Source of the DNA: Candidatus Moranbacteria bacterium GW2011_GWC2_40_12
GTDB taxonomy: Bacteria > Patescibacteriota > Minisyncoccia > Moranbacterales > UBA11712
Assembly: GCA_000995965.1 (NCBI GenBank)
Contig: LBYD01000002.1
Location: 7,889-71,888 of the forward strand
DNA: 64,000 bases
Reading direction: 5' to 3'
Shown here: positions 9,626 through 44,403 of the stretch, piece after piece
Position numbering within the stretch: position 1 is the stretch's first letter
Layout: the number at the start of each line of letters is the position of its first letter
The notes under the pieces: model-generated
What the model was told of the DNA's origin: nothing
Seen by the model: only the letters and a program-made list of their open reading frames with translations
The model's database searches: none
Position numbers and translations under genes: made by a program

Positions 9626-10345
9626 ATGGCTAAAAAGGCAATCATGTCAGACGCGATGTTCACGGTCGTTCGTGCTCCTTTTGGAAGATGGGTGCTCTAT
9701 CGGGAACTCATATTCAATCTCACCGGCGTCCAGGCCGATCCGGCGATCATTGAACTGATTTACAAGAAAGAGCGCCAAGCCGCCGAAAGCAAGGGACAGG
9801 TGGCATTCCTTAAGTCCGGCGATTACCGCCGGCATTGGGGCGCGATCAACGCCAATCTTCTCCGACAACTTGATCCATCAATCAGCCAATTGGAAGCCCA
9901 AGAAATAGGTGAGCAAATTTTTTCGGAGGTGATGTTCAATCCGACAAATTATTTGCTGCAACACGAGCTTGAAGATTTCATCTTGGCCGCCCGGGAAAAG
10001 GATTACGCGCTGTATCTTGCCACCAATCAGGAGGTTGCCGGGATAAAACGGATTCTGGAATATTTCCAAATCAGACCTTATTTCAAGAACATTTTCGTCT
10101 CCGATGTGATTGGGTTCAAAAAACCTGATCCGCGCTTCTTCGAGCATTGCATCAAGGCAACCAAATGTTCTCCTGGCCACATCGCTTTTTTAGGAAACAA
10201 TCCCCGGAACGATATGGAGGGCGCCGCGGCCGGCGGAATTTCACATCGGTTCCTTTTTGATCCGGATGGGGAGCATTTGGATACCGAATGCGCTGTCAGC
10301 TATATTCAGATCAGGAGCCTATTGGAACTTTTCAGCCACTTCTAG
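9626..10345 (+). CDS. HAD-superfamily hydrolase (degenerate motif I)
   Basis: C-terminal KPDP and GNNPRNDMEGA (motif IV-like) features; canonical DxD not evident at the N-terminus. Confidence 0.6.
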   Translation: MAKKAIMSDAMFTVVRAPFGRWVLYRELIFNLTGVQADPAIIELIYKKERQAAESKGQVAFLKSGDYRRHWGAINANLLRQLDPSISQLEAQEIGEQIFSEVMFNPTNYLLQHELEDFILAAREKDYALYLATNQEVAGIKRILEYFQIRPYFKNIFVSDVIGFKKPDPRFFEHCIKATKCSPGHIAFLGNNPRNDMEGAAAGGISHRFLFDPDGEHLDTECAVSYIQIRSLLELFSHF

Positions 10346-10358
10346 CACATCGCGCATT

Positions 10359-10390
10359 TGGGCGGACCTTCGGGACCGCCCTTTCATTTT
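10359..10390 (+). terminator. Rho-independent terminator after the HAD gene
   Basis: ggcggacc-ttcg-ggaccgcc hairpin followed by ctttcatttt. Confidence 0.55.
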
Positions 10391-10481
10391 ATAAATTTCA
10401 ATTGCCCTTTTGCCTAATTTTTGATAGAGTATATGAAGTCAATTGAGGATCTTTTCCAATTCAAAAAGTTGACGGACTGAA

Positions 10482-10676
10482 ATGCCAAAAGGAGATAAAA
10501 AAGTTATGGTGGCCTTGGTTGTCATTATTTTTGTCTTTTTTATCATTCTCGGCCTTGTGTATCTTCTCGCAAGTCTTTATAACAAAGACCGGAATATCGT
10601 GGGCGGGGCGATTTTGATGTTGCTCTCGTGCGTCATTCTCCTCGCGCTTTTCCTCATTTCCGTCTATAACCGCTAA
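10482..10676 (+). CDS. hypothetical 2-TM small membrane protein (64 aa)
   Basis: Two hydrophobic helices; followed by a GC hairpin and T7 run (10694-10717). Confidence 0.45.
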   Translation: MPKGDKKVMVALVVIIFVFFIILGLVYLLASLYNKDRNIVGGAILMLLSCVILLALFLISVYNR

Positions 10677-10843
10677 TCGCTTTTAATCAGTAACCCCCTC
10701 GCGGGGTATTTTTTTCATTTTCCCAACTTAGCATTTTGCCACGGCCGTGGGAAAATGCTGAATGCGCGTTCTTGGCTTCGCTAAGGTTCGACATTAGTGA
10801 AGCTCTAGTGTTTCAAATAAAATACCAAAATTTTACTTTTAAC

Positions 10844-10872
10844 TTGACATAAATAAATTGAGGTACTAGAAT
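10844..10872 (+). promoter_or_regulatory. Near-consensus sigma-70 promoter (TTGACA-17 nt-TAGAAT)
   Basis: ttgacataaataaattgaggtactagaat, ~70 nt upstream of the 10942 ORF. Confidence 0.5.
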
Positions 10873-10941
10873 TTCCTATCAACTTTTTAATGTTGATATT
10901 TACAGAAAACCCAATTTTGCCACGAGGGAGGGCATCGTATC

Positions 10942-11244
10942 ATGGAAAAGGATTATTTGCTGAACAGAGCATCGCTTTTCGCCATCGCGAATCGGGAGAA
11001 TCGGCCTTTGGGCTTCGGCTGTCCCGAAAGCGGTCTGTACATTTTCACCTACGTATTCACGACCAAAGAATCAGCTCAAAGGTACCTGGATAGTCGTGAT
11101 ACGAAGATCAAAGGGATCTGCTCCATCGTCGGTCCCTTCGGCAATTTCAAGGCGTTAATGGCGCACTTTGACTTCCGGGGAAGTGGGCACGGTTTTCGGT
11201 TTTTCGATGAAAAAGGACATGCTGTCCTCGAACACCATGCTTGA
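10942..11244 (+). CDS. hypothetical protein (100 aa)
   Basis: ORF downstream of a strong promoter, followed by the family-2 hairpin repeat; no motif recognised. Confidence 0.45.
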   Translation: MEKDYLLNRASLFAIANRENRPLGFGCPESGLYIFTYVFTTKESAQRYLDSRDTKIKGICSIVGPFGNFKALMAHFDFRGSGHGFRFFDEKGHAVLEHHA

Positions 11245-11273
11245 GGCGCAACAAATCACCATTCGGAAAAAAG

Positions 11274-11315
11274 GTGCGACCAGTCGAGGACGGTCCTCGA
11301 CTTAATCATTTTTGA
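11274..11315 (+). terminator. Family-2 repeat, terminator-like (GTGCGACCAGTCGAGGACGGTCCTCGACTTAATCATTTTT)
   Basis: Palindrome gtcgaggac-g-gtcctcgac followed by a T-run; a second copy lies at 14286-14322. Confidence 0.5.
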
Positions 11316-11491
11316 ATGTAACAAAAAATCCAAGTCTAAATAATCAGGAGGGAAAAGCAGCGTCAGGGTCAAATTCCAGCGCGGCCATGGAATCGCGATT
11401 GTTGAGATGCCCATCGCGGAAATCTCTTCGGGTGCGATTGCGAAACTGAGAAAGAAAATCTGATCTGCGACCATTTGAAAACGATCCTCAA

Positions 11492-11932
11492 TTGAATCAG
11501 ACTGCCACTGCCCAGGAGGAATGGCTCATGCCCGATAATGATTGGCCACCGATCCTTGAAGGAATCTTGGCGGAATTGAACTCGCCTGCCTGCACATCGC
11601 ATTACGTCGAGTTTGTCGCCTGCCTGTATGGCAAGCACCGGTCATTTTGTCCACCCGAGATTATCCCGAATATGATCGATTCCCTGCAAAAATCGATGAT
11701 TATCGCGCCCTTCCTGGAGGGTCTTGTCGATACGGCTGTTGGGAATCTCAAAATTCAGCTCAGGAAACATACGGGACCTGAACCGCCGGCTGAATGCCCG
11801 GATTGCGGCGGAAAACTGGAAAAGGCCACCGGGCACAGGGAAGTCATAAAAGGCGACCTTAAGTGCGTCGGCGATTGCAAGAAGTTCTTTTTCTTCGTCA
11901 TTGGCCAATTGAGGCCTGGCCACAATGATTAA
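11492..11932 (+). CDS. hypothetical protein with C-terminal CPDCGG...CVGDC zinc-ribbon-like motif (146 aa)
   Basis: CxxC...CxxxC pairs near the C-terminus; otherwise unrecognised. Confidence 0.4.
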   Translation: MNQTATAQEEWLMPDNDWPPILEGILAELNSPACTSHYVEFVACLYGKHRSFCPPEIIPNMIDSLQKSMIIAPFLEGLVDTAVGNLKIQLRKHTGPEPPAECPDCGGKLEKATGHREVIKGDLKCVGDCKKFFFFVIGQLRPGHND

Positions 11933-12027
11933 GAGTTAGCTTCAAGCCTGGAGCAAACGGTTGCGGGAAATGCGCTTTCATAGGCGCTCCCCGCAACCGC
12001 TTTTTTATTTCGTTTCCGAGCTAATCT

Positions 12028-12050
12028 ATCCCAACATTCAATGTTGGGAT
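12028..12050. repeat. Family-1 palindrome (atcccaacatt-c-aatgttgggat, perfect 11-bp stem), directly 3' of the abrB-like gene
   Basis: Read from the sequence. Confidence 0.45.
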
Positions 12051-12051
12051 T

Positions 12052-12225
12052 TCATTTTTTGCTCCGAGCGTCTTTGATAAGCAATCCGCCCTTGACCCGT
12101 TGGATGGCCAGCTTCTGCCGCTCCCGCCAGCCGAGATCGCGGATGTGTTCTTTGGGCAGGACTACATACATACTCCCCCGCCCGGTTTTGGTGAGTTTTC
12201 TCACAACTTTTTCTTTTTTCGCCAT
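12052..12225 (-). CDS. AbrB/MazE/SpoVT-like small DNA-binding protein (57 aa), copy 1
   Basis: Manual translation (below the ORF-track size cutoff): MAKKEKVVRKLTKTGRGSMYVVLPKEHIRDLGWRERQKLAIQRVKGGLLIKDARSKK, which resembles the swapped-hairpin AbrB/SpoVT fold pattern. Confidence 0.55.
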   Translation of the reverse strand: MAKKEKVVRKLTKTGRGSMYVVLPKEHIRDLGWRERQKLAIQRVKGGLLIKDARSKK

Positions 12226-12251
12226 CGCTTTGCTTCTATATTTTTATTAAG

Positions 12252-12271
12252 TAACGTAGATCGCTACGTTA
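12252..12271. promoter_or_regulatory. Perfect palindrome TAACGTAGATCGCTACGTTA in the 5' region of the abrB-like gene (candidate auto-operator)
   Basis: 10-bp arms, 27 nt upstream of the minus-strand ATG; copy 2 at 16459-16478. Confidence 0.5.
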
Positions 12272-12414
12272 CCCATTTTATACCGCATAGCGTAAATCGG
12301 ACAAATGAAAATTGGGGTTGCTTTCCTCCTCGCGGTTTTTTTGTTTTGGAGTATAATAGAAATGACCCAAAAAACAGGAGGGAGGATCTGTTTTTTTGGT
12401 TAATCCCAAAATAT

Positions 12415-14238
12415 ATGCCCACCAAAACAACGCGCTACCGGAAATATTCTTTCCCCATCGCCTACGCCGGGATTTGCCCCGAAAAAGACGGTTTTTTTGC
12501 TGCTGTCCAAAACGGGAAAAAAGTTTCTGCGATTGAATTTGTGAAGTGCCCGACCAAAAAAATTGACCAGAAAATTTTCTCCTGGCTCCAGAAATTTGCC
12601 GCTAGAAATGAAATAAAAATCGTCGGCTGCGGACTGGCGATTGAAGAAGCTTCCAAAAAAATTGACGAGCTTACTTCCGACCTTTGGCTCAAGCAGGACA
12701 TCGTGCCCTATGTTTTCAACATCCAGTCAAAGAACTCGAAAAAGAAAGCGCGAAGCGCCGCCGCCGAAGTGGCAAAAAGATTCGGGCATGACCACATCGT
12801 TGATGTTTCTTTCGATCCGGAGCGGCGAGTCCGCACGGTGCGCCTGGCAAGCCTCGACGATTTCCGAAGAACAATCGGACGGGATGATTTTCAGGAACTT
12901 CGAAATTTGGCTGAAAAATTCAAGGCGCAGGAAGGAAGACTCTATTTTTTCAGCTCTACTCCCCGCGGAGGCGGAGTGGCCATCATGCGCCATGCTATAA
13001 TCAGGCTTTTTCGCCTTCTCGGAATTGACGCCAATTGGTATGTTTTGAGCTCAAAAAGAGAGGTTTTCGGAGTCACAAAGAGAAAAATTCACAATGTCCT
13101 TCAAAATGTGGCTCCGCCCGACACAAAATTTGCCTCGCGGGACAAAAAAATTCTTTCCGAGTGGTCGAAAAAGAACGCAAGGAATTTCGAACCGATATTC
13201 AAAAGAGCCAAAGTGATTGCCATTGATGATTACCAGCCCTCGGGAATGATTCCCTGTATCAAAAAAATAAATCCGAAAGCCAAAATTATCTACCGCTCCC
13301 ATATCCAGATTGAGGCCAGCCTGATAAAGAAAAAAGACACTATCCAAAGCGAAGTCTGGGGGCATCTTTGGAAAAATATCCGCTTCGCCGATGTTTTTGT
13401 GAGCCACCCGATTGAAAAATTCATTCCCTCGAACGTCCCCCGCCAGAAAACCGTCCTTATGGCCCCCTCGACCGACAAGTTGGACGGCCTCAACAAAAAA
13501 CTTTCACCAAGCCAGCTGAAATTCTATATCAATCTTTTCAATAAACAGTCTTTAGGCTCTCCGCTCGACATGAAAAGACCCTACGTCATCCAGATCGCCC
13601 GCTTTGACCCGTCAAAAGGAATTCAGGACGTCATTGAATCATACCGCAAACTCCGCAAAAAACTCGATGCCGCAAAAATTCCCAAAAAAAATATCCCCCA
13701 GCTCGTGATCGCCGGACACGGCTCGGTTGACGACCCGGAGGGAGATTTCATTTTCACTTCCACTCTGAATCTTCTTGAGATGGATACCTACAAAGATATT
13801 TCCCCTGACATCAAAGTTGCCAAAGTCCCTCATAGCGATCAGATTTTGAACGCGCTCCTCAGCGAAAGCCTCATCGTCCTTCAGCTTTCCCATAAAGAAG
13901 GTTTTGAGTTCAAAGTGACGGAAGCGCTTCACAAGGGAAAGCCGGTGGTGGCCTACCGTACAGGAGGAATTCCGCTCCAAGTTGAACATGGCATCAGCGG
14001 GTATCTTGTTAAAACCGGAAACACCAACCAGGTTGCCCGATATTTGTTCAAGCTTCTAATAGACAAAAAGAAATATCTTGAAATGTCCCGAAACGCCAAA
14101 GATCATCTCAAAAAAGATTTTTTTACCGCATCAAGCGCCGCCAAGTGGCTTTTTCTTGCAACTGAGCTTTTGGAAAAAGGAAAAATCAAAGGCAACCGGA
14201 AATTGGTCCGGGATCTGATGGCTAAGGCAAAAAAATGA
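12415..14238 (+). CDS. GT-B fold glycosyltransferase (GT4-like) with ~130-aa N-terminal extension
   Basis: C-terminal EGFEFKVTEALHKGKPVV (E-G-F-G...E-A...G-x-P-V-V) motif and N-terminal GGGVAIMRH...G glycine-rich nucleotide-sugar binding region. Start chosen at the first Met after the abrB-like gene; the track ORF from 12100 overlaps that gene. Confidence 0.65.
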   Translation: MPTKTTRYRKYSFPIAYAGICPEKDGFFAAVQNGKKVSAIEFVKCPTKKIDQKIFSWLQKFAARNEIKIVGCGLAIEEASKKIDELTSDLWLKQDIVPYVFNIQSKNSKKKARSAAAEVAKRFGHDHIVDVSFDPERRVRTVRLASLDDFRRTIGRDDFQELRNLAEKFKAQEGRLYFFSSTPRGGGVAIMRHAIIRLFRLLGIDANWYVLSSKREVFGVTKRKIHNVLQNVAPPDTKFASRDKKILSEWSKKNARNFEPIFKRAKVIAIDDYQPSGMIPCIKKINPKAKIIYRSHIQIEASLIKKKDTIQSEVWGHLWKNIRFADVFVSHPIEKFIPSNVPRQKTVLMAPSTDKLDGLNKKLSPSQLKFYINLFNKQSLGSPLDMKRPYVIQIARFDPSKGIQDVIESYRKLRKKLDAAKIPKKNIPQLVIAGHGSVDDPEGDFIFTSTLNLLEMDTYKDISPDIKVAKVPHSDQILNALLSESLIVLQLSHKEGFEFKVTEALHKGKPVVAYRTGGIPLQVEHGISGYLVKTGNTNQVARYLFKLLIDKKKYLEMSRNAKDHLKKDFFTASSAAKWLFLATELLEKGKIKGNRKLVRDLMAKAKK

Positions 14239-14285
14239 GATTATAAGTAGTTTAGTTTGCTTTTTTCACTCTTAAAATAAAAATT

Positions 14286-14322
14286 GTGCGACCGGTCGAG
14301 GACGGTTCTCGACTGAGTCATT
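14286..14322 (+). terminator. Family-2 repeat copy 2 (GTGCGACCGGTCGAGGACGGTTCTCGACTGAGTCATT)
   Basis: ~85% identical to 11274-11315; contains a hairpin. Confidence 0.4.
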
Positions 14323-14428
14323 AGGCCAGATTTCATATTTTCCCGCGGGCGGGAAACGGTGCAAACAAAAAAAAGCGGCGCACCCTTCCTTTGCAGGCCG
14401 GGTACGCCGATCGTAAAATGTTCATTGC

Positions 14429-16036
14429 CTAGTGGCCGAAGAAGCCGCGGCCTTTGCTGTCGGGGATCATATAGAGAACGATGCCTTTGTCCTGGCAATA
14501 TTTGATCACCTTTTTGTCCCTGACAGACCCGCTGGTGGTGAATACGGCTTTCACTCCCGCTCTCTCGAGGGCGATCACACCATCGGTCTCCGGGAAGAAG
14601 CTGTCACTCGCGGCTACGGCGCCCTGGATGTCGTGTTTGCAGCTTCTGGCCCTGGTGATGGCAAGCCGAGCGCCGTAAACCCGGGCCTGCTGGCCGACGC
14701 CGTCCCCGATGAGCATCTCGTCCTTGACCAACGTCACCGTATTGCTGTTGGAAGTGTGGCACACGGCTATGGCGAGGAGCAAATCGCTTTCCTGTACTGG
14801 AGTGGCCTGGCCATATTTTTTGAGTTCCGGATCATTGAAGTCAGGAACGTACAAATAATTCGGCTGGGTTGAGAACCCTCCTCTCAAATACCGAAACCGG
14901 GTAGCCGTGTCCAAGCTGCGCCGGTTTAGCTTCTCCAGGGCGGGATTCACCATCAGCCGGCACTTATCGCCCTTTCGCTTCAGCTGATCGATAGTATCGT
15001 CGTCAAAGGATGGAGCGACAATGCCGTCCAAAAGCCTCCGCGCGCCTTCCGGCATGCCGTGGGTCAAAATGGTTTCGGCAATCTCGGCGGTTACCGGAAA
15101 ATTGAGCATCAAAAACCCGCCGAAGATGGCCAGAGGATCTCCATCGACCACCCTCCAGATAACCGCCTCGGGACTGCCACTAAAAGCAGCTCCGCACGGG
15201 TTGCCGTGTTTCACGGCGACGGCTACGCGCGGCACTATGCCACGGTTCACGTCAAAGGAGGCCGCGATGTGGGTGATGGTCTGGACCAGCCTGTCAATGT
15301 CGCACCAATTGTTGGAACTGGGAGCGGTCCCGGCGACTAGTTCAAAACTGTCCACCGCCATGGGATCGCCTGATCCGGTCGTATATACAACGGCCGGAGT
15401 CTGGGAAGCGTTCTCGCCATATTTGCACATCGCGAACTGCTTGCCGAAAACGCCGTCGTATCCGCCACTGCTGTGGTATTGGGCGGAGGCCATGACGTAT
15501 TTGGCAACGGTGAATTCAGCCTTGGCGACCAGCTTGGTGATGAATGCCTCCCGGTCAGGTTCGCCGTCTTTCAGCCAACGGATCACCCTCTGGCGGTCAA
15601 ACGCGTCGCAGACAACGATCCGCCGGCCTTTGGCAGCCGAACGGAGCAGGGTCGGCCCCCCGATATCGGTTTTTTCGATGACCGACTCCGGGGTGCTTTC
15701 AGGACGGGCAATTTCCGATTGGAGAGGATACATGTCGTTGACCACCATGTCGATAAAGGGAATGGCTTCCGCTTCCAGCTCGGCTAAATCTTCCGCGATG
15801 GGCCTGGCCAGAAGTCCGGCGTGAATTTCCCGGGAAAGCGTAACCACGCGGTGACCAAGGATCGGTTTCCCGACCATCGTGGCAACGTCAGTCACCCCAA
15901 TTCCAGCCTCTCTGAGAACCTTGGCCGTTCCGCCGGACGAAAGAATCGTCCAGCCGAGAGCCACGAGCTCCCGGGCGAATTCCACGATCCCGGCCTTGTC
16001 GAAGACCGAAATCAACGCATACTTTGCTTTCTTCAT
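14429..16036 (-). CDS. purH: bifunctional AICAR transformylase / IMP cyclohydrolase PurH
   Basis: MGS-like N-terminus ALISVFDKAGIVEFARELVALGWTILSSGGTAKVL and 535 aa length. Confidence 0.95.
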   Translation of the reverse strand: MKKAKYALISVFDKAGIVEFARELVALGWTILSSGGTAKVLREAGIGVTDVATMVGKPILGHRVVTLSREIHAGLLARPIAEDLAELEAEAIPFIDMVVNDMYPLQSEIARPESTPESVIEKTDIGGPTLLRSAAKGRRIVVCDAFDRQRVIRWLKDGEPDREAFITKLVAKAEFTVAKYVMASAQYHSSGGYDGVFGKQFAMCKYGENASQTPAVVYTTGSGDPMAVDSFELVAGTAPSSNNWCDIDRLVQTITHIAASFDVNRGIVPRVAVAVKHGNPCGAAFSGSPEAVIWRVVDGDPLAIFGGFLMLNFPVTAEIAETILTHGMPEGARRLLDGIVAPSFDDDTIDQLKRKGDKCRLMVNPALEKLNRRSLDTATRFRYLRGGFSTQPNYLYVPDFNDPELKKYGQATPVQESDLLLAIAVCHTSNSNTVTLVKDEMLIGDGVGQQARVYGARLAITRARSCKHDIQGAVAASDSFFPETDGVIALERAGVKAVFTTSGSVRDKKVIKYCQDKGIVLYMIPDSKGRGFFGH

Positions 16037-16237
16037 AAGCCTTCTCCTTGAATTAGAATGGCCTGCTTCTATTTTACTCCTAAACCTCCTTTAGTCGAAT
16101 TTAACTGATTTTTAAAATTGCATCTGCCTGAAAAAGCAGTCCCTTATAGTAGCAGATGTTTATATTTAACCGCAAGCATGATGTCCCTCCTCCCCCAGCA
16201 CGCGGATGGAATAAAAAAAGCGCTCGAAGGACTCATA

Positions 16238-16254
16238 CCAACATTCAATGTTGG
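16238..16254. repeat. Family-1 palindrome (ccaacatt-c-aatgttgg) 3' of abrB-like copy 2
   Basis: Read from the sequence. Confidence 0.4.
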
Positions 16255-16258
16255 GATT

Positions 16259-16432
16259 TCACTTCTTGCTCCGGGCGTCTTTGATGAGCAGTCCTCCCTT
16301 CACACGTTGGACGACCAGCTTCTGCCGCTCCCGCCAACCCAAGTCTCGAATATGCTCTTTCGGCAGCACGACATACATGCTCCCCCGTCCCGTTTTGGTA
16401 AGTTTCCGGATAATCTCTTCTTTTTTCGCCAT
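16259..16432 (-). CDS. AbrB/MazE/SpoVT-like small DNA-binding protein (57 aa), copy 2
   Basis: Manual translation: MAKKEEIIRKLTKTGRGSMYVVLPKEHIRDLGWRERQKLVVQRVKGGLLIKDARSKK; 5 conservative substitutions relative to copy 1. Confidence 0.55.
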   Translation of the reverse strand: MAKKEEIIRKLTKTGRGSMYVVLPKEHIRDLGWRERQKLVVQRVKGGLLIKDARSKK

Positions 16433-16458
16433 TGTTTTGATTTTATATTTTTACCAAG

Positions 16459-16478
16459 TAACGTAGATATCTACGTTA
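16459..16478. promoter_or_regulatory. Perfect palindrome TAACGTAGATATCTACGTTA (operator, copy 2)
   Basis: Same arms as 12252-12271 with a different central dinucleotide. Confidence 0.5.
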
Positions 16479-16634
16479 CCCGCGTTACCCATATTATCCC
16501 GCAAAGCCGAAAATCGGGCAAATGAAATAACTCTTGATTATCCCCTCCCTCGCGGGGGTTTTTGTTTTGGGGTATAATTAAATCACAAATTTGCTGCGGA
16601 AGAACCGCCGCAGAATAATACTTCAAATAAACAG

Positions 16635-17741
16635 ATGAAAACAAAAAAAATCATTCTAGTTTTCTCGGCGATTGCGGCGGCAGTTTTTTTGTGCGGCGCT
16701 GATACAAAAAGTGCCGAAGCTAAAAAAACAAAGCGCAACTACAAAACTGCCAGTTTATTCAACGTTTCCGGCGACCAAACCAATGCCGACACAACAGCCG
16801 ATTACACGTTGTATGGATCACAATACCGGAACTTGTATCGGAAAATTTCCGTTCCGGGGCTCAAGATTTCCGATCCATTGCCTTTCCGAATATATGGACA
16901 AAGCAAAGCAGGAGCGCCGTATCCCGAAGGAAGTTGGGTAGCGAGTTCAAGTTATTCCATTGCCGACGGATATTTGTATCTTAAATATGGATACGGATAC
17001 GGCGGCCCAAATTGGTCTTATTATATTGGAAGCACCGGAGATTACCGGCTCTTCACTTATTATGGCGGAAAAAGCACGAAAAAAACCAAACGCCAATGCG
17101 CCCAAATTTTTGGTTTTTCGGTTTCCGGAGACGCCTCCAATGCCGACGCTTCAATTGTCTCCTCAAGCAGCAACCCGAACACGACCTTTCACTACCGAAA
17201 AATAGCCCTAAAGAATTTGAAATTGACAAACGTCCCCGACTACCAGATATACAAAAAGGACACGTATGATCCCGGATTGGGCAGTGAGTCATGGTCGCCG
17301 ACGAGCATCTATTTCTTTTCCGGCGGATATGGCTGGATTCTATATGGTTATTCCGGGAACGGACAATTCTATTCATCAAACACCGGGGATTTCCGTCTCT
17401 GTTTTCCCGAAAAAATCTCCAAAAAGAAAAGTTTCGCGAAACGCTATATTTTCTCCGTTTCCGGAGACGCGACGAATGCTGACGTTTCCCTTAATTCCGG
17501 GATGTTTACCCTCTATTATCGCAAAGTTTCTGTGCCAGGACTCAAAACCGACAATGAAATGAATATGCGCCTAATGAAAAAAAATAATTTCTTTTCAGGA
17601 TTTTCTGAAGAATCTTGGGGAGGCGCGGCTTATTATACGGATAACGGAGCGATTTATATCATGTATGGGAGCGAAGTTAATGCTACCGGCGTTTTCACTG
17701 ATACTGGAATCGGCAACTACCGTTTGTTTACTTATAAGTAA
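16635..17741 (+). CDS. secreted protein with three ~100-aa internal repeats (VSGD..NAD...YRK(I/V)..(P/K)GLK)
   Basis: Signal peptide; repeats start at roughly residues 40, 155 and 275, each beginning F(N/S)VSGDxxNAD. Confidence 0.55.
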   Translation: MKTKKIILVFSAIAAAVFLCGADTKSAEAKKTKRNYKTASLFNVSGDQTNADTTADYTLYGSQYRNLYRKISVPGLKISDPLPFRIYGQSKAGAPYPEGSWVASSSYSIADGYLYLKYGYGYGGPNWSYYIGSTGDYRLFTYYGGKSTKKTKRQCAQIFGFSVSGDASNADASIVSSSSNPNTTFHYRKIALKNLKLTNVPDYQIYKKDTYDPGLGSESWSPTSIYFFSGGYGWILYGYSGNGQFYSSNTGDFRLCFPEKISKKKSFAKRYIFSVSGDATNADVSLNSGMFTLYYRKVSVPGLKTDNEMNMRLMKKNNFFSGFSEESWGGAAYYTDNGAIYIMYGSEVNATGVFTDTGIGNYRLFTYK

Positions 17742-17753
17742 AATTTCAAAAAA

Positions 17754-19262
17754 ATGGCCAAAAACAAAAAAACAAACAGCCAAAACAACATCAAAAAACA
17801 GGTTTCGGCGCCAGAAGCGGAAAAGCAATTGCCCTCAAATAATAAAAGCGAGACAAAAAAGAGCAGGGGTTGCCTCACCTGCGGAATTGTCGCGGCGGTG
17901 GTTGCTGTTCTTGTCATCATCGGATTTATCGCACTCAGTATTTTGAGATTTTGGCTTCCGCCCACTTTTCTTTTCGGAATTATCAGCCAGCTAAAGGGAG
18001 TTGAAAATATCAGCCAGCTGTCTGACCTCGGTTCGAAAACATATTTATCCGGAAAAAAACAGCCGGTCGCAAACACGGCCAAAGCAGTCAAAAAAATGAT
18101 AACCGCGAAAGACGGTGGAAGCATCGAGGTGACGACTGAAAGCGGACTCACGACGACAATCATCATTCCTCCCGGCTCGCTTGAAGAAGACACGGAAATA
18201 GAACTCGCCCCAAATGAAAATATTCCTGACGGAACCGAAGATCCCGGCTCTACGGAAGACCCGGGAGTGACCGTCGGTCCGCCGGGAACCACATTCGATC
18301 CCGCGGCAACAATTGTTTTCAGCTACATCCCGACGCAATTGACCGGAAGCGTTGTTCCGGGCGCCGGTAGCGGATTCTCCCGACCTGCGACCGGAGAAAA
18401 TGAAAACAGAAATTCAGAAAGGCGCTTTCCGGACGACGCGGAGATAGTTGTGACAAGCGCCGGCGCTTCGAACCCTGCTCCAACCGAACACGCGGATGAC
18501 GGTTCGTCAATTTCCGGGCCAATCGGCGGATCAGGCGCGGCCGAGCCGGACAACCCGACCCCCGAAGAATCAGAAGATATGGCCGAAACCGCCGCCGCCG
18601 CTTCCGGTGGGACCTGTTCTCCTGAATTTTTGCAGGCGATGGCCGGCGCGTCCCAGGCTGGCGGTCCAGGTTCGCAAGCCGCCCAGGCCGCCATTCGCGA
18701 TTGCCTCAACACGGAGTGGCTCAACAATCTTTGCGTGAATGATCCGGTGAAACTGCGGCGAACTCATTTCGAACAGCGCCTGGTGATCGCCCGCCGCTTT
18801 AATTCTCAAGCTGCAGTCGCTATTGAAAGCCTTATGAACCAGTGCCAGGCTAAATACCGTTTCCGCGGCGAAGGAATCAATCCTGAATCAACCGCGGACG
18901 TGACAATATTCTCCTCCTTTGACGCAACCGTTTGCGGATATGTTGACGACGAGTGGACCGCCCATGAAATTTATCGGCTTAGCGGCGGCTATAATACAGT
19001 CCATTCCATTGAAGGAACGGGCGAATTCAGCCTTCCGTCCGGCGGAGGATCTTTTGCCGGTACCGCCCATGGAGAAAATCAAATGGCTGTCGTTGGACAG
19101 GGAGTGGCCATTCCCAATTTCGACGCAGGCTTTCATGGATATTTCGACGGAATAAAAACTATCCAAAACCTTTATCTGGCCCCGGCCGGCGTGGTTGTTT
19201 CCAGCGCCCCAATTGAGCTTCAGGGAAAAGACTGTGTCCCGCTGGCTCCCCTTCCTAGATAA
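17754..19262 (+). CDS. hypothetical membrane-anchored protein with low-complexity Gly/Ser/Pro/Glu-rich middle (502 aa)
   Basis: Lys-rich N-terminus, one TM helix, low-complexity linker, Cys-containing C-terminal domain. Confidence 0.45.
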   Translation: MAKNKKTNSQNNIKKQVSAPEAEKQLPSNNKSETKKSRGCLTCGIVAAVVAVLVIIGFIALSILRFWLPPTFLFGIISQLKGVENISQLSDLGSKTYLSGKKQPVANTAKAVKKMITAKDGGSIEVTTESGLTTTIIIPPGSLEEDTEIELAPNENIPDGTEDPGSTEDPGVTVGPPGTTFDPAATIVFSYIPTQLTGSVVPGAGSGFSRPATGENENRNSERRFPDDAEIVVTSAGASNPAPTEHADDGSSISGPIGGSGAAEPDNPTPEESEDMAETAAAASGGTCSPEFLQAMAGASQAGGPGSQAAQAAIRDCLNTEWLNNLCVNDPVKLRRTHFEQRLVIARRFNSQAAVAIESLMNQCQAKYRFRGEGINPESTADVTIFSSFDATVCGYVDDEWTAHEIYRLSGGYNTVHSIEGTGEFSLPSGGGSFAGTAHGENQMAVVGQGVAIPNFDAGFHGYFDGIKTIQNLYLAPAGVVVSSAPIELQGKDCVPLAPLPR

Positions 19263-22683: not shown

Positions 22684-23688
22684 TTATTTTGGTCCTTTGA
22701 GCATTATCGCAAGACCCTTTGCCGAATAGGCGCAACGGGGATTCGGCCATTCATCCGGATCGGGACAGCAGTCCTCGTCCATATGCCTGCCCTTTGTTTT
22801 GCTTTTGCGGGGATTGTCTTTTTTGTGGGCGCAAGTGGCGCCGGAGGTATAGCGGACTTTTGGGGCGGCGGCGGCTTTCTGGATGGCTTTTTTTGAAATT
22901 TGGGCAATACTTTGCGTTTCAACTTCCGCGAAATCAAGCGTTGAAACAACGTCATAGAATTCAGGAAAATTCCGTAGTATATCGATCTTTTTTCGGTCCT
23001 CAAAAATATTCGCGCTTCCTTCCTGGCGGGGAACAATATTGAAGGTATATCCGTTTTTCGTGAGGCTGTAGAAAAAAGTTTCTTCCCAGCAGGGATTATC
23101 GACTGAGACGTTTGCCTCTTTGGCCTGATAGGCTTTTTCTCCCAAGGTTATGTCATCGAAATGCGGGCATTTTTCTTCCGAAACATCTTCATTTTTCTTT
23201 TTCAAATTGTCCGTCCCGATTGGACCGGGAAATTTTGCGGCGCTATAAACAAAAACATCAAAACCCTTCACGCCGTCCGCGCTCGCAATGCCTTTTTCGT
23301 CGAAAGCTATTTTTTGAAGATAGCTTTCTCCTTTGGCGGCGGAGCTTTCGCGCGCGTTTTGCCAATTTTTTGGATACTTCAGGGAAACTCTGTATTTTTG
23401 ACTCTTATATGTTTTCCAATCGGCGGTCGGATCAGGAGCCGGGGCTAGGTTTACCGTGAGTCCGGAAAGGCGGCGAAATTCGTCTTCATAGGCGCTGTGG
23501 CGCTTTTTTTTTGCTTCGTTCAGATTTTCATAGCGGGCAAATTGGGCCAATAGCACGGCCAAAACGAAAGAAACACCTCCAATGGCGATAATCATCGAAA
23601 GGGCGGTGATATTTTCCCGTTTTATAAAATTAGGAAGATGTTTCTTTATTATTTTTTTCATTTTTGTATAATGTCTATAACATAACAC
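22684..23688 (-). CDS. membrane-anchored protein with conserved C-terminal Cys motif (family member A)
   Basis: N-terminal TM helix; C-terminus ...GATCAHKKDNPRKSKTKGRHMDEDCCPDPDEWPNPRCAYSAKGLAIMLKGPK shared with 31645-32244 and 43387-44403; body homologous to 43387-44403. Confidence 0.55.
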   Translation of the reverse strand: MLCYRHYTKMKKIIKKHLPNFIKRENITALSMIIAIGGVSFVLAVLLAQFARYENLNEAKKKRHSAYEDEFRRLSGLTVNLAPAPDPTADWKTYKSQKYRVSLKYPKNWQNARESSAAKGESYLQKIAFDEKGIASADGVKGFDVFVYSAAKFPGPIGTDNLKKKNEDVSEEKCPHFDDITLGEKAYQAKEANVSVDNPCWEETFFYSLTKNGYTFNIVPRQEGSANIFEDRKKIDILRNFPEFYDVVSTLDFAEVETQSIAQISKKAIQKAAAAPKVRYTSGATCAHKKDNPRKSKTKGRHMDEDCCPDPDEWPNPRCAYSAKGLAIMLKGPK

Positions 23689-31644: not shown

Positions 31645-32244
31645 TTAGCGCAGTTTGAGCATTCGCGAAAGCTGCTCGGGAGTATAGTAGCAGTGCGGAT
31701 TGGGCCATTCGTCCGGATCGGGACAGCATTCCATATCCATATGCGGCTTGTCGTTTTTTTTGCTTTCGTGCGGCTTGTCGTTTTTCTTTTCGCAAACCCT
31801 TTTTCCATCCACTCTCTTGGTAGAGGCTTGGGGCACCGGCGCGGCTCGAAGCCGCGCCGCCTCCGCGGCGCGCGCCCTTGAAATTTTTTTCGCCCTCGCT
31901 GTTCTGATCGCCAAGCTTTTCACTGAATCAGCCGCGCCTGACATTGTATTAGAAACTTTCATTTCTTCTGCGAAATAATTATTTTTTGAAACTTCAGCAT
32001 CTTCGCTTTTCTGACTTTCTGCCGCAAGAACTTTTTCAGCGATTATTCCATCAGACTTGCTGCCCGGCGCACTCTGCTTCGCGCCTAGCCTATAATCAAA
32101 CAAGATTTTCCCGCTAGAAAAAAAAGAGATTCCAAAAGCTGCGGCACAAAGCAAAACCAGCAGCATCGTTTCGGCGCTTTCCGGATCGAATTCAACTTTT
32201 TGGAACAAATCCAGCCTTATTTTTCCCAATTTTTTCAGTTGCAT
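31645..32244 (-). CDS. membrane-anchored protein with conserved C-terminal Cys motif (family member B, short form)
   Basis: C-terminus ...KRVCEKKNDKPHESKKNDKPHMDMECCPDPDEWPNPHCYYTPEQLSRMLKLR; contains an 8-aa tandem duplication (KKNDKPHE/KKNDKPHM). Confidence 0.5.
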   Translation of the reverse strand: MQLKKLGKIRLDLFQKVEFDPESAETMLLVLLCAAAFGISFFSSGKILFDYRLGAKQSAPGSKSDGIIAEKVLAAESQKSEDAEVSKNNYFAEEMKVSNTMSGAADSVKSLAIRTARAKKISRARAAEAARLRAAPVPQASTKRVDGKRVCEKKNDKPHESKKNDKPHMDMECCPDPDEWPNPHCYYTPEQLSRMLKLR

Positions 32245-40452: not shown

Positions 40453-41058
40453 AAAATAAGTATACTCTCAATCCTTTATACCAATACTATATACAAAAAA
40501 ATGAAGGGTCTCAAGGAGTTCCGACTCTTCGCGTACTAAGGGGAAGCTTAGACGCGCGAAAGAAAATAGAACTTCTCAAGACCCGTATGGCGGGGCCGAG
40601 CTTTGATATTTTCTCAGCTGGCTTCTTTCCAACCTTTTTTGCGGTTGACTCAAAGCGATTCTGGGCCCCGTGTAATGAACTACTACACCGGATAAGGCAT
40701 TTTTCTTTTGGAAAATGAATTCAGAAATCCCGCCGAAATCCGCTAGACAAGGACGCAGTATCCTATCATTTAACCCTATAATCTCTCACGACAATCCCGC
40801 CTCTAATTCTCTTAACCGAAACCCGTTGTTTTTCTCGCCAGCCGAGTTCACGGATGATCTCAATTGGAATCGTCACCGCGAGGCTAGTTTTTCCGACCCT
40901 CGTTATTTTTCTCGTGTTTTTGTCTTTTAGTTTCATATACTTATCGAAGTAAGTATTAAAGTAAGTATTTTCTGCCCCTATCCTAACCCAAACCGCCGAT
41001 TTTGTCGAGAAAAAACAGGACTAGATCCTGTTCTTATTTCATATGGATACTGGCTTTG

Positions 41059-42693: not shown

Positions 42694-43386
42694 GACTGCC
42701 TCCTTTAGACAAGCTATCACCCCTCTCTGGGATGGCTTTCCGCAACTCTCTTTGTTGCTGAAATTCCAGTTAACGCTTTCTCCTGGGAAGTTTTTCGGAA
42801 ACCCGATCACTTGAACGCGACGAAGATTCCCGAAATCTTTTTCTTTATCAGCTTTCCTTACTTCGGTGGTGATGACGAATAGATCATCAAAGCCAATGTA
42901 GGCAACCTCGACCAAAGTATCCCCGTTCACATGACAAAGGACCGAACCCAGATCAAGAACGGGAATAATCACCACGGCAGTAATTCCCTTTTTGGCTAAG
43001 AAATCCTGGACTTTTATCTGGTTTTTTTCCAGGATATTCCGGGCCAACTGCTTCTCTCTGAAGGTCTTGTTTCTTCTTCCCAGTGGACCGAAATCGCGTG
43101 GAATTCCGCGACGTTTGAATTCCCGATTTATCTGCAAGCCTCCTCCGACGCAAATCACCACGTAATGTGTTTGAGATAGATCCCCGAGCTATTTGATAAC
43201 ATCCCGGCGAGTAACTAAATCGCCCGAGACTTTTACGAAAGCGGTTTTACGCATATTTGCAACCCCCTTATTCCCAGCCCGAAGCTGTATTTTATTGGTA
43301 AAGAAGTGGATACAAAATAGCGCAGATGCAAATATTTATCAAGAAAAAGGGGGCTTTGAGCCTGGATGTTTATTTTTGCGCATTGG

Positions 43387-44403
43387 CTAATAAGTGCACC
43401 AGGGATTCGGGTATTCGTCGGGATCAAGACAGCATTCCATATCGAGATGCTTCCCTTTGTTCTGCCGGCTCTTTCGCGGCTTGTCATTTTTCTTGGCGCA
43501 GACCAATTTGCCGCCCACAACTTTGAAAGACACTGGTTTTGGCGCGGTTATTTTGGGTTTGAGGGGCGCGGGTTTCGGTCTCACAATATCAATGAGCCCC
43601 AAAGTGGAGGCCGCGGCATAATACTGCGGGAAATTATCGTTGATAGCCAACCTGGGATCAGCTCCTTGCTGGGATTCTGCGCTGAGGACTGGAACAATAT
43701 TATAAATATATCGTTCTTTCACAATACTAAAAAACAAAGCGGGACCATAGCAGTCATCTGTTGGAGGAATATATATTTCTTCGGCGGGAAAATCATCAAC
43801 GTCGAACGCGTGGCCTTCGATATTTTGGCATCGCGCATCATTTTTCAGATCTTGATTTTTTAGAGTTGGATATTCTTCGGTATTCGATATCTCCTTCGTT
43901 TTCGGAACGTCATAAACAGCCACATCAAACCCAAGATAGGGATTCTCTCCAGCATCATTTTTTCTGAATTGATAGCGGGCCTCCCATTTCGATCCGGCCG
44001 ATTTTCTCTGGCTTTTTGGCGCGATCCATTCACCGGGATATTTCACAGAAAAACCCCAAAACTGGTTGCTGAAATCCTTCCAGCCGCCCAAGTCAGTTGA
44101 ATTTATTATCTTTTCAGCCTCCGCCGAAATATCCGTTTCTGTCATGATCGGATCCGGACTGCTGTCTCCGGCGACGACTCCCTCAGTCTCATCGGCGATT
44201 TTCACGGCGGCGGCCGGCATCCTTTCTCCGGCTGGGGCGCTTCGAAAATTTCGGGGCATATTTGAATATAAAAATGCCGCCGCAAAAAAAATGGCAGCTG
44301 ACACGACGACGATGTCCCTTTTTATGTTCGTCCGGCATGTCATTCCTCTGCAAAATATCGAGTTCCACTCCCTGAATGATTTTTTGAAATTTTCGATGGT
44401 CAT
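43387..44403 (-). CDS. membrane-anchored protein with conserved C-terminal Cys motif (family member C)
   Basis: C-terminus ...GGKLVCAKKNDKPRKSRQNKGKHLDMECCLDPDEYPNPWCTY; body homologous to 22684-23688 (e.g. GFDVAVYD, YIYNIVPVL, NFPQYYAAASTL blocks). Confidence 0.55.
   Translation of the reverse strand: MTIENFKKSFREWNSIFCRGMTCRTNIKRDIVVVSAAIFFAAAFLYSNMPRNFRSAPAGERMPAAAVKIADETEGVVAGDSSPDPIMTETDISAEAEKIINSTDLGGWKDFSNQFWGFSVKYPGEWIAPKSQRKSAGSKWEARYQFRKNDAGENPYLGFDVAVYDVPKTKEISNTEEYPTLKNQDLKNDARCQNIEGHAFDVDDFPAEEIYIPPTDDCYGPALFFSIVKERYIYNIVPVLSAESQQGADPRLAINDNFPQYYAAASTLGLIDIVRPKPAPLKPKITAPKPVSFKVVGGKLVCAKKNDKPRKSRQNKGKHLDMECCLDPDEYPNPWCTY

Follow-up and report, generated by a model that had tools for sequence, protein, structure and literature searches.

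A 64-kb stretch of the genome of Candidatus Moranbacteria bacterium GW2011_GWC2_40_12 (hereafter the window) contains two direct-repeat cassettes, at 12028-12357 (copy 1) and 16236-16578 (copy 2), each built around a minus-strand gene for a protein of 57 amino acids (aa), and the question raised by this locus is which gene such a small regulator serves. An earlier note on this DNA had proposed a portable divergent unit that places two surface-related genes under a shared regulator. Our analysis points to a different answer. Each copy is probably a negatively autoregulated minimal regulator of the AbrB type and not an antitoxin, and we consider it quite likely that the two copies are long-retained paralogous autoregulators.

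Structure and conservation of the two cassettes

In both copies we observed the same order of elements: a 3' stem-loop, the minus-strand open reading frame (ORF), an operator of 22 bp, a sigma70-like promoter belonging to the ORF and an outward-pointing module with a T-run and a TATAAT box. The similarity between the copies extends in the alignment from the hairpin to 3-5 nt past the TATAAT, and its ungapped core (12028-12274 compared to 16235-16481) shows 83% identity over 247 nt. Two copies are present as the earlier note had stated, but the identity of ~85% given there was too high: matches are found at 142 of the 174 coding positions and at 106 of the 137 upstream positions that align, with 15 gap columns in addition, so that the cassettes are ~80% identical overall. 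The two 57-aa ORFs read letter for letter as they had been quoted.

Comparison of the ORFs yielded a ratio of non-synonymous to synonymous substitutions (dN/dS) of 0.037, with a dS of 1.39 and a proportion of synonymous differences (pS) of 0.63. These substitution patterns indicate that the duplication of the small gene is old and that both proteins are under strong purifying selection, and they support the proposal that both copies are functional. Synonymous sites are saturated in every pair of the close clade, including the paralogs L006A and L006B of another genome (labels of this type denote loci of relatives from genomes and metagenomes). The upstream non-coding DNA of the window copies shows mismatches at 23% of the aligned positions (0.23 compared to a pS of 0.63), and the -35 block, the GCGGGATAAT -10 block, the 22-bp operator and an A-rich leader are nearly invariant across 11 sites from 6 genomes or populations. 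Because these blocks are nearly invariant despite a saturated dS, the non-coding DNA of the cassette is under constraint. We rejected a reading of the cassettes as mobile elements similar to miniature inverted-repeat transposable elements: no terminal repeats were seen, and since dS is saturated the pair reflects an old duplication rather than a recent transposition.

The number of two copies had to be revised, as a third paralog in the window, more distantly related, had been overlooked (Table 1). This gene is monocistronic, and its subfamily is common in metagenomes (L021, L022, L025, L030, L046 and others). A further observation concerns a strain variant of copy 2 with 98% identity (L014:541-690; Ga0208246_1043366), which carries an in-frame deletion of 24 nt (8 codons). 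The deletion takes out IIRKLTKT, the first DNA-binding strand, and is known from one short contig; it may represent either a natural null allele or an error of the assembly.

Fold and family of the 57-aa protein

The AbrB/MazE/SpoVT-like fold proposed for the small protein was borne out by a profile search against the PDB, by the Pfam matches of its relatives, by AlphaFold2 (AF2) and by Foldseek. A word-indexed search returned 26 close relatives, every named one of them from Patescibacteria, and an exhaustive HMMER search gave 353 clusters at 50% identity (E ≤ 1e-3), almost all of 50-85 aa and mostly of 53-63 aa. The named members belong to Paceibacterota, Doudnabacteria and the 'Patescibacteria group', one of them labeled by NCBI as AbrB/MazE/SpoVT-domain protein. 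The family is uncharacterised and, judged by these matches, widespread in Patescibacteria; in the literature searched, no paper combined AbrB with the Candidate Phyla Radiation (CPR), and AbrB was mentioned in none of the top-listed papers on Patescibacteria. A scan of viral contigs gave no relative that would suggest a phage origin, and matches to PHROGs were weak.

PF04014 (MazE_antitoxin) is matched by 74 of 87 relatives at E ≤ 0.01 (best E = 1.7e-10). When a profile of the 87 members was compared to the PDB, the N-terminal domains of AbrB were the best matches (E = 5.5e-3 to 7e-3, profile positions 8-58), followed by weaker matches to addiction-module antidotes, C56 and MazE. The AF2 model based on the 87-sequence alignment reached a predicted local distance difference test score (pLDDT) of 87.6, with the structured domain extending to residue 52, and supersedes an earlier model from 26 sequences (pLDDT 71.5), for which the Foldseek matches had been non-significant. 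With the 87-sequence model the first 32 Foldseek matches were all swapped-hairpin-type DNA-binding proteins or engineered relatives, and the strand-helix-hairpin domain of ~50 residues superposes on solved members of the superfamily. Structure prediction for the 57-aa protein likewise points to an AbrB-type fold. A second domain after the AbrB domain is present neither in the window proteins nor in the family.

The operator and its position

The palindromic operator described in the earlier note is there, but it spans 22 bp instead of 20, is perfect in copy 2 only and is separated from the ATG by 25-26 nt in both copies instead of 27. In copy 2 it is accompanied by an insertion of 9 nt at 16480-16488 (CCGCGTTAC), which duplicates part of a half-site. 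Within the window the pattern GTAACGTAG-N4-CTACGTTAC is found in both cassettes only, with 0.05 occurrences expected by chance, and no GTAACGTAG half-sites were found in the window beyond the two operators (at up to 1 mismatch we obtained 4 matches, all of them in the operators, where 2.8 were expected). The wider search led to the same family: among 185,579 species genomes the pattern occurs on 5 contigs, 4 of which carry a family gene or a remnant of it, while the fifth is a chance match inside a coding region. Two such palindromes are present in a relative with 37% identity (L007).

For the family as a whole we carried out a census of boxes in 75 non-redundant metagenome relatives and 247 control upstream regions. 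In the relatives the 60 nt upstream of the ATG contain on average 1.65 hexamers of the TACGTA/TAAGTA/AACGTA type, compared to 0.049 in the controls, which is a 34-fold enrichment (p = 7e-48), and adjacent boxes lie exactly 12 bp apart in 48 of 57 pairs. The flanks of the boxes vary by protein clade, and in some loci (L026, L042 and L079) the boxes are arranged as direct repeats. The third paralog of the window has another box type, with ATACTTACTT twice and an inverted TAAGTAT (ATACTTAC boxes), in an operator that abuts the ATG. Near-invariance at saturated dS together with a family-wide phasing of 12 bp supports the proposal that the palindrome acts as a protein operator, as far as sequence comparison can tell.

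The ~60-nt spacer noted earlier is indeed conserved, but it is actually the small gene's own promoter. In each copy the operator begins 2-3 nt downstream of the predicted -10. As it thereby covers the expected transcription start, it occupies what is classically a position for self-repression.

A model of negative autoregulation

From these observations we propose that each cassette is a self-contained, monocistronic gene whose product of 57 aa would consist of a swapped-hairpin domain with short tails of basic character. Its most likely state is an intertwined homodimer, as is usual for this fold. The two ACGT-centred half-sites 12 bp apart would then hold two dimers, one per box, by analogy with MazE, for which three dimer sites are bound in its own operator (PMC4333400). 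A protein placed on the operator over the expected transcription start would repress its own gene; the bare-domain AbrB-like protein C68 is known to bind its own promoter (PMC5569661). The paralogous proteins may also bind each other's operators and in this way form one coupled pool. Such cross-binding is expected because the residues from R9 to L39 and the operator arms are identical.

Several points weigh against this model. With PF04014 the two window proteins reach 18.4 and 20.1 bits, below the gathering threshold of 24.7, and no NCBIfam model reaches its cut-off with either of them. The AF2 model describes a single chain, so that the swapped-hairpin dimer is putative. The operators are equally long, and only that of copy 2 is a perfect 22-mer, the 4 nt in the centre of the copy 1 operator being non-palindromic. 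Autoregulation alone leaves unexplained why two near-identical copies are kept in a reduced genome, and it also does not account for the conservation of the outward module (mismatch 0.23 compared to a pS of 0.63).

Table 1. Positions of cassette elements, neighbouring genes and the third paralog in the window
Feature	Positions	Strand	Remarks
Copy 1 3' stem-loop ATCCCAACATTcAATGTTGGGAT	12028-12050		1 nt from the small-gene stop; -13.1 kcal/mol, z = -4.8
Copy 1 small gene UX02_C0001G0368, 57-aa protein of the AbrB/MazE/SpoVT fold	12052-12225	-	ORF, fold and dN/dS
Copy 1 operator GTAACGTAG-ATCG-CTACGTTAC	12251-12272		Inverted arms of 9 bp with ACGT cores spaced by 12 bp; located between -10 and ATG
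Copy 1 small-gene sigma70-like promoter TTGTCC-18 nt-TAAAAT	12275-12304	-	ATTTGCCCGATTT and GCGGGATAAT blocks conserved in 11 sites
Copy 1 outward module CCTCCTCGCGG, T-run, GGAGTATAAT	12325-12357	+	TATAAT at 12352-12357, 57 nt upstream of the ATG at 12415
Copy 1 divergent neighbour, 607-aa TreT-like GT4 glycosyltransferase	12415-14238	+	Pfam and gene calls
Copy 2 3' stem-loop CCAACATTcAATGTTGG	16236-16256		Stem one pair shorter and weaker; z = -1.3
Copy 2 small gene UX02_C0001G0365, 57-aa paralog	16259-16432	-	91% protein identity, identical from R9 to L39
Copy 2 operator GTAACGTAGATATCTACGTTAC with 9-nt insertion	16458-16488		Perfect 22-bp palindrome
Copy 2 small-gene sigma70-like promoter TTGCCC-17 nt-GATAAT	16493-16521	-	Predicted; block conservation
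Copy 2 outward module CCCCTCCCTCGCGGGGG, T-run, GGGGTATAAT	16542-16578	+	TATAAT at 16573-16578, 56 nt upstream of the ATG at 16635
Copy 2 divergent neighbour, 368-aa protein	16635-17741	+	Signal-peptide-like N-terminus, three internal repeats, no Pfam match
Third paralog, 56 aa	40766-40936, with operator to 40975	-	45% identity; starts MKLKDKNTRKITRVGKTSLAVT

The outward module and the divergent genes

In the model of the earlier note the small protein, in addition to regulating itself, would also control the outward TATAAT promoter, so that the TreT-like gene and the gene for the secreted repeat protein would stand under one regulator. We regard this as doubtful. The outward (g/a)gTATAAT box reported in the earlier note is present as GG[A/G]GTATAAT, 56-57 nt upstream of both plus-strand ATGs, and the TTTTGTTTTGGRGTATAAT module is common to copy 1, copy 2 and L011 (JAQUQQ010000015.1, Moraniibacteriota STD1_53), where the sequence at L011:1595-1637 is 98% identical to the module of copy 2. 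It is far better conserved than synonymous sites and beyond what is neutral (0.23 compared to a pS of 0.63), and its exact form was found in same-species loci and L011 only. We also rejected the possibility that it is a promoter form in general use in this genome, as the combination of a T-run and TAWRAT gave 5 matches where 2 were expected, two of the matches being the cassettes themselves. The small gene has a divergent upstream neighbour at 8 of 9 distinct close-clade loci, while in the wider family the arrangement is mostly co-directional. A precedent is given by C68 of pSSVx, which binds between its own and a divergent promoter (PMC5569661).

The position of the operator argues against such a control. 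The sole operator is placed after the -10 of the small gene and ahead of its ATG, and the half-site scan of the 64 kb revealed neither another operator nor a half-site in the vicinity of the outward -10. The distances from the operator centre to the centre of the outward -10 are 93 bp in copy 1, 107 bp in copy 2 and 156 bp in L011, which shows no helical phasing and lies outside the footprint of RNA polymerase, and the terminator-like T-run separates the operator from the outward -10. Divergent genes and promoters in other genomes are unrelated (HD_4, HAD, unknown and secreted proteins), and L011 has kept the outward module and the operator although the small gene is lost at this locus. As to the downstream genes themselves, they encode a TreT-like GT4 enzyme and a protein with three repeats and an N-terminus resembling a signal peptide, as described, but a GT4 enzyme of the TreT-like trehalose synthase type has no evident surface function. 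Given the operator position, the unphased distances and the unrelated divergent genes elsewhere, the proposal of a portable divergent unit with two surface genes under a shared regulator is not supported in the form given, and we retain autoregulation as the preferred reading.

Two observations were made upstream of the TreT-like gene. In the region 12377-12415, downstream of the copy 1 outward -10, we noticed a strong GGAGGGAGG motif located 30 nt before the first in-frame ATG, which is too far to serve as the Shine-Dalgarno sequence of this gene. An ORF of 46 aa begins at the TTG at 12396 in a different frame from the TreT-like gene, so that this region may contain a short upstream ORF or encode a leader peptide.

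Variable DNA around the cassettes

We compared the surroundings of the cassettes with L011, which is syntenic with window positions 10316-10715 and again from 17868 on. The 5.7 kb between these points, containing both cassettes, the TreT-like gene and purH, correspond to ~1 kb in L011. This shorter segment consists of an orphan operator with promoter, a gene for 238 aa (no Pfam match) behind a second operator with promoter, and the outward module, which here drives transcription of the ortholog of the window gene 17754-19262. Both small genes, the TreT-like gene, purH and the repeat-protein gene (16635-17741) are absent from the L011 locus (1-1700). A deletion between the two direct repeats was rejected as the source of this layout, as two operator-promoter remnants are still present in L011 and enclose a different gene. 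A second example is L008 (JASEHL010000010.1), where a truncated third cassette at L008:1150-1360 is found besides two intact ones. In this remnant the promoter is intact and the operator perfect, but of the gene only the first six codons (MAKKEK) are left, after which unrelated sequence runs into a bidirectional terminator. On this comparative evidence the cassettes are located at the edges of variable DNA. The promoter-operator part can outlive the gene, as in L011 and in the remnant of L008.

Nucleoid-associated, antitoxin and RNA readings

It is improbable that the small protein is an architectural or nucleoid-associated protein, similar to the archaeal AbrB-fold proteins Sso7c4 and the 'histone-like protein' 5itj, for which the palindrome would just be the strongest site. 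A bare domain of ~57 aa with Lys/Arg-rich tails and several paralogs per genome would fit such a protein, but the boxes at its own promoter are strict, differ by clade and are precisely phased, which argues for sequence-specific recognition.

We give very little weight to the proposal that the small genes are orphan type II antitoxins (MazE, VapB, PrlF or Phd-partner type) whose toxins were lost or lie elsewhere. The top Pfam and NCBIfam names, MazE_antitoxin and doc_partner, agree with this, some relatives carry a PrlF antitoxin label (JGI), and in the relative L026 the next gene encodes a HigB toxin; the normal partner of HigB, however, is HigA rather than an AbrB-type protein. Next to the three small genes (12052-12225, 16259-16432 and 40766-40936) we found no toxin-like ORF, so that the earlier view of a toxin-antitoxin (TA) pair as unlikely holds for both copies, and the called genes in relatives agree. 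Among ~38 distinct downstream partners in relatives (27 of them scanned with Pfam) we found one toxin, the rest being restriction-modification (R-M) enzymes, hydrolases, kinases and others. TA operons typically carry autoregulatory palindromes, which the cassettes would match (PMC4333400), but the 57-aa protein ends a few residues past the DNA-binding domain and has no C-terminal toxin-neutralising tail, whereas the disordered C-terminus of MazE is required to neutralise MazF (PMC4333400).

An action of the palindrome as RNA, either by stabilising the mRNA with a 5' stem-loop or by serving as terminator or attenuator, is just as improbable: the palindrome folds well as RNA (-13.4 and -16.7 kcal/mol, z = -3.3 and -4.6) and was flagged on the plus strand by a terminator scan, but since the predicted -10 lies at a distance of just 2-3 nt, transcription would start inside the left arm and the full hairpin could not form, the boxes keep their sequence with no compensatory change, and the type of box follows the protein clade. 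In L026, L042 and L079 a purely RNA-hairpin role is ruled out, because direct repeats at a spacing of 12 bp cannot pair.

Other RNA elements were sought around the cassettes as well. The earlier note had described a short GC hairpin with a T-run in the outward module; the T-run is real, but the hairpin is unstable and was rejected as a structured element, since its z values of 0.02 and 0.5 are no better than for shuffled sequence. A small RNA composed of the spacer and the T-run was rejected too, as no plus-strand promoter was found and the folding does not exceed that of shuffled sequence. The Rfam search of 10500-17000 at E ≤ 1 returned only a spurious match to a plant miRNA at 10727-10763.

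Genomic context in relatives

Relatives with 45-60% identity usually have their small gene in the same direction as the neighbouring genes, and the next gene starts within -35 to +50 nt. These next genes are diverse and encode the HigB toxin, RadC, MazG-like, DUF3800, RhuM, HAD, hydrolases, Cdd1 or an APH kinase, the latter being found behind the small gene in L012, a relative with 93% identity. In this listing R-M enzymes are frequent: N6_N4_Mtase, D12 (Dam), MmeI-type, Eco57I-like, EcoRI methylase, RE_Bsp6I and ResIII/HSDR_N. The small gene lies directly upstream of restriction and/or modification genes in L025, L031, L037, L047, L062, L067, L069 and L072. Three of these loci (L025, L037 and L047) hold complete R-M systems. 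In L025 the small gene is followed by a methylase and PD-(D/E)XK nucleases, and in L037 by Dam, a PD-(D/E)XK nuclease and a second methylase. The small gene of L047 precedes a Bsp6I-type endonuclease with an overlap of 4 nt, followed by a convergent LexA-S24-C5-methylase fusion and Vsr. This fusion is an unusual observation in itself: a single ORF (L047:4813-6381) comprises a LexA DNA-binding domain, an S24 peptidase and a C5 cytosine methyltransferase, which makes it a methylase that carries its own, possibly self-cleaving repressor domain.

The general role of the family looks like that of a small plug-in controller, because in distant members the unit of promoter, operator and small gene heads R-M or accessory genes. 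In its full form this would mean that the family consists of controller cassettes, each with a promoter, two to three TA(A/C)GTA-type boxes at exactly 12 bp and a gene for a bare AbrB-fold protein of 55-60 aa, which head R-M systems and other genes acquired horizontally and represent a functional analogue of the controller (C) proteins of R-M systems on another fold, the window copies being stand-alone divergent derivatives at the edges of a variable segment. We put this forward tentatively, as a possibility with some appeal that we would not yet favour. The neighbours of the small genes in the window are the TreT-like gene, purH, the repeat-protein gene and a convergent ORF of 146 aa, with no R-M gene among them, and we found no description of an AbrB-fold R-M controller in the literature.

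Comparison with known systems

The closest analogues of the window proteins are C68 of pSSVx and the DNA-binding halves of AbrB, SpoVT and MazE. AbrB, Abh and SpoVT of Bacillus share the N-terminal swapped-hairpin domain with the 57-aa protein. AbrB is a global regulator with many degenerate sites and no strict consensus, whereas the family has strict boxes phased at 12 bp at its own promoter, and differs further from AbrB by an insertion of 4 residues after the conserved Gly. AbrB and SpoVT also possess a C-terminal multimerisation or GAF domain (PMC5569661), while the 57-aa protein is the bare domain. The antitoxins MazE, VapB, PrlF and Phd/doc-partner have the same DNA-binding fold and palindromic or multi-site autoregulatory operators by their own promoters (PMC4333400); in contrast to them, the window genes come with neither an adjacent toxin nor a C-terminal toxin-binding tail, and the partners in relatives are overwhelmingly non-toxin.

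C68 (pSSVx), C56 (pSSVi) and Sso7c4 are, like the window proteins, bare swapped-hairpin proteins (of ~56-68 aa) with no C-terminal domain, and were among the structural matches obtained here. The gene for C68 is divergent from its neighbour, and the protein binds two intergenic sites, one of which lies in its own promoter (PMC5569661). C68 and C56, however, are plasmid-virus proteins of archaeal mobile elements with a recognition motif, TATG(C/GG)TTTTC, that is unrelated to the boxes of the family; the sequence similarity is marginal (E = 0.034) and the structural scores are below those of SpoVT and AbrB. The C proteins of R-M systems follow the same logic as the distant relatives, namely a small autoregulated gene with a palindromic operator, located directly upstream of restriction or modification genes and probably co-transcribed with them. 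C proteins are of the Xre type with a helix-turn-helix and not a swapped-hairpin fold, and none of the three paralogs in the window adjoins an R-M gene.

Hairpins and other repeats in the window

The hairpin at the 3' end of the cassettes had been listed as a cassette element. It is present in both copies, but the stem of copy 2 is one pair shorter, and the CCCAACATTcAATGTTGGG hairpin is a generic element of the genome that also flanks msrA at 1765 and 2302. The same hairpin is found 3' of orthologous genes in L005 and L006, and the stem-loop of copy 1 is a probable 3'-end or terminator hairpin. We observed that msrA (1804-2289) is bracketed by CCCAA(C/T)ATT(c/g)AATGTTGG(G/A) at 1759-1787 and 2297-2325, with no U-run on the sense strand. 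The hairpin shared by the cassettes and msrA may be the organism's usual 3'-end signal.

Two further repeat families were noticed. Repeats of 44 nt at 11267-11310 and 14279-14322 are 86% identical (a weaker copy lies at 11458-11501) and hold the perfect inverted repeat GTCGAGGAC-g-GTCCTCGAC. They are located behind the 100-aa ORF (10942-11244) and in the gap separating the TreT-like gene from purH, which are convergent, and they probably represent another family of terminator-type hairpins. Segments of 90-116 nt at 22696-22786, 31654-31812 and 43360-43518 form three copies with 60-76% identity, probably a repeated protein-coding domain in three genes.

Implications

Almost nothing is known about the control of transcription in Patescibacteria or CPR bacteria, which are mostly uncultured and have few recognisable regulators. 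The window as such yields less, namely two probable autoregulators. A small and very widespread family of regulators is now defined, and its predicted operator grammar is unusually clear: boxes with an ACGT or AAGT core follow each other at exactly 12 bp in the stretch from the -10 to the ATG, and the box variant goes with the protein clade. If the relatives that head R-M genes act as controllers, the controller-protein strategy would have evolved on a second fold. If the family indeed consists of plug-in cassettes, these are perhaps a main transcriptional device of the regulator-poor Patescibacteria.

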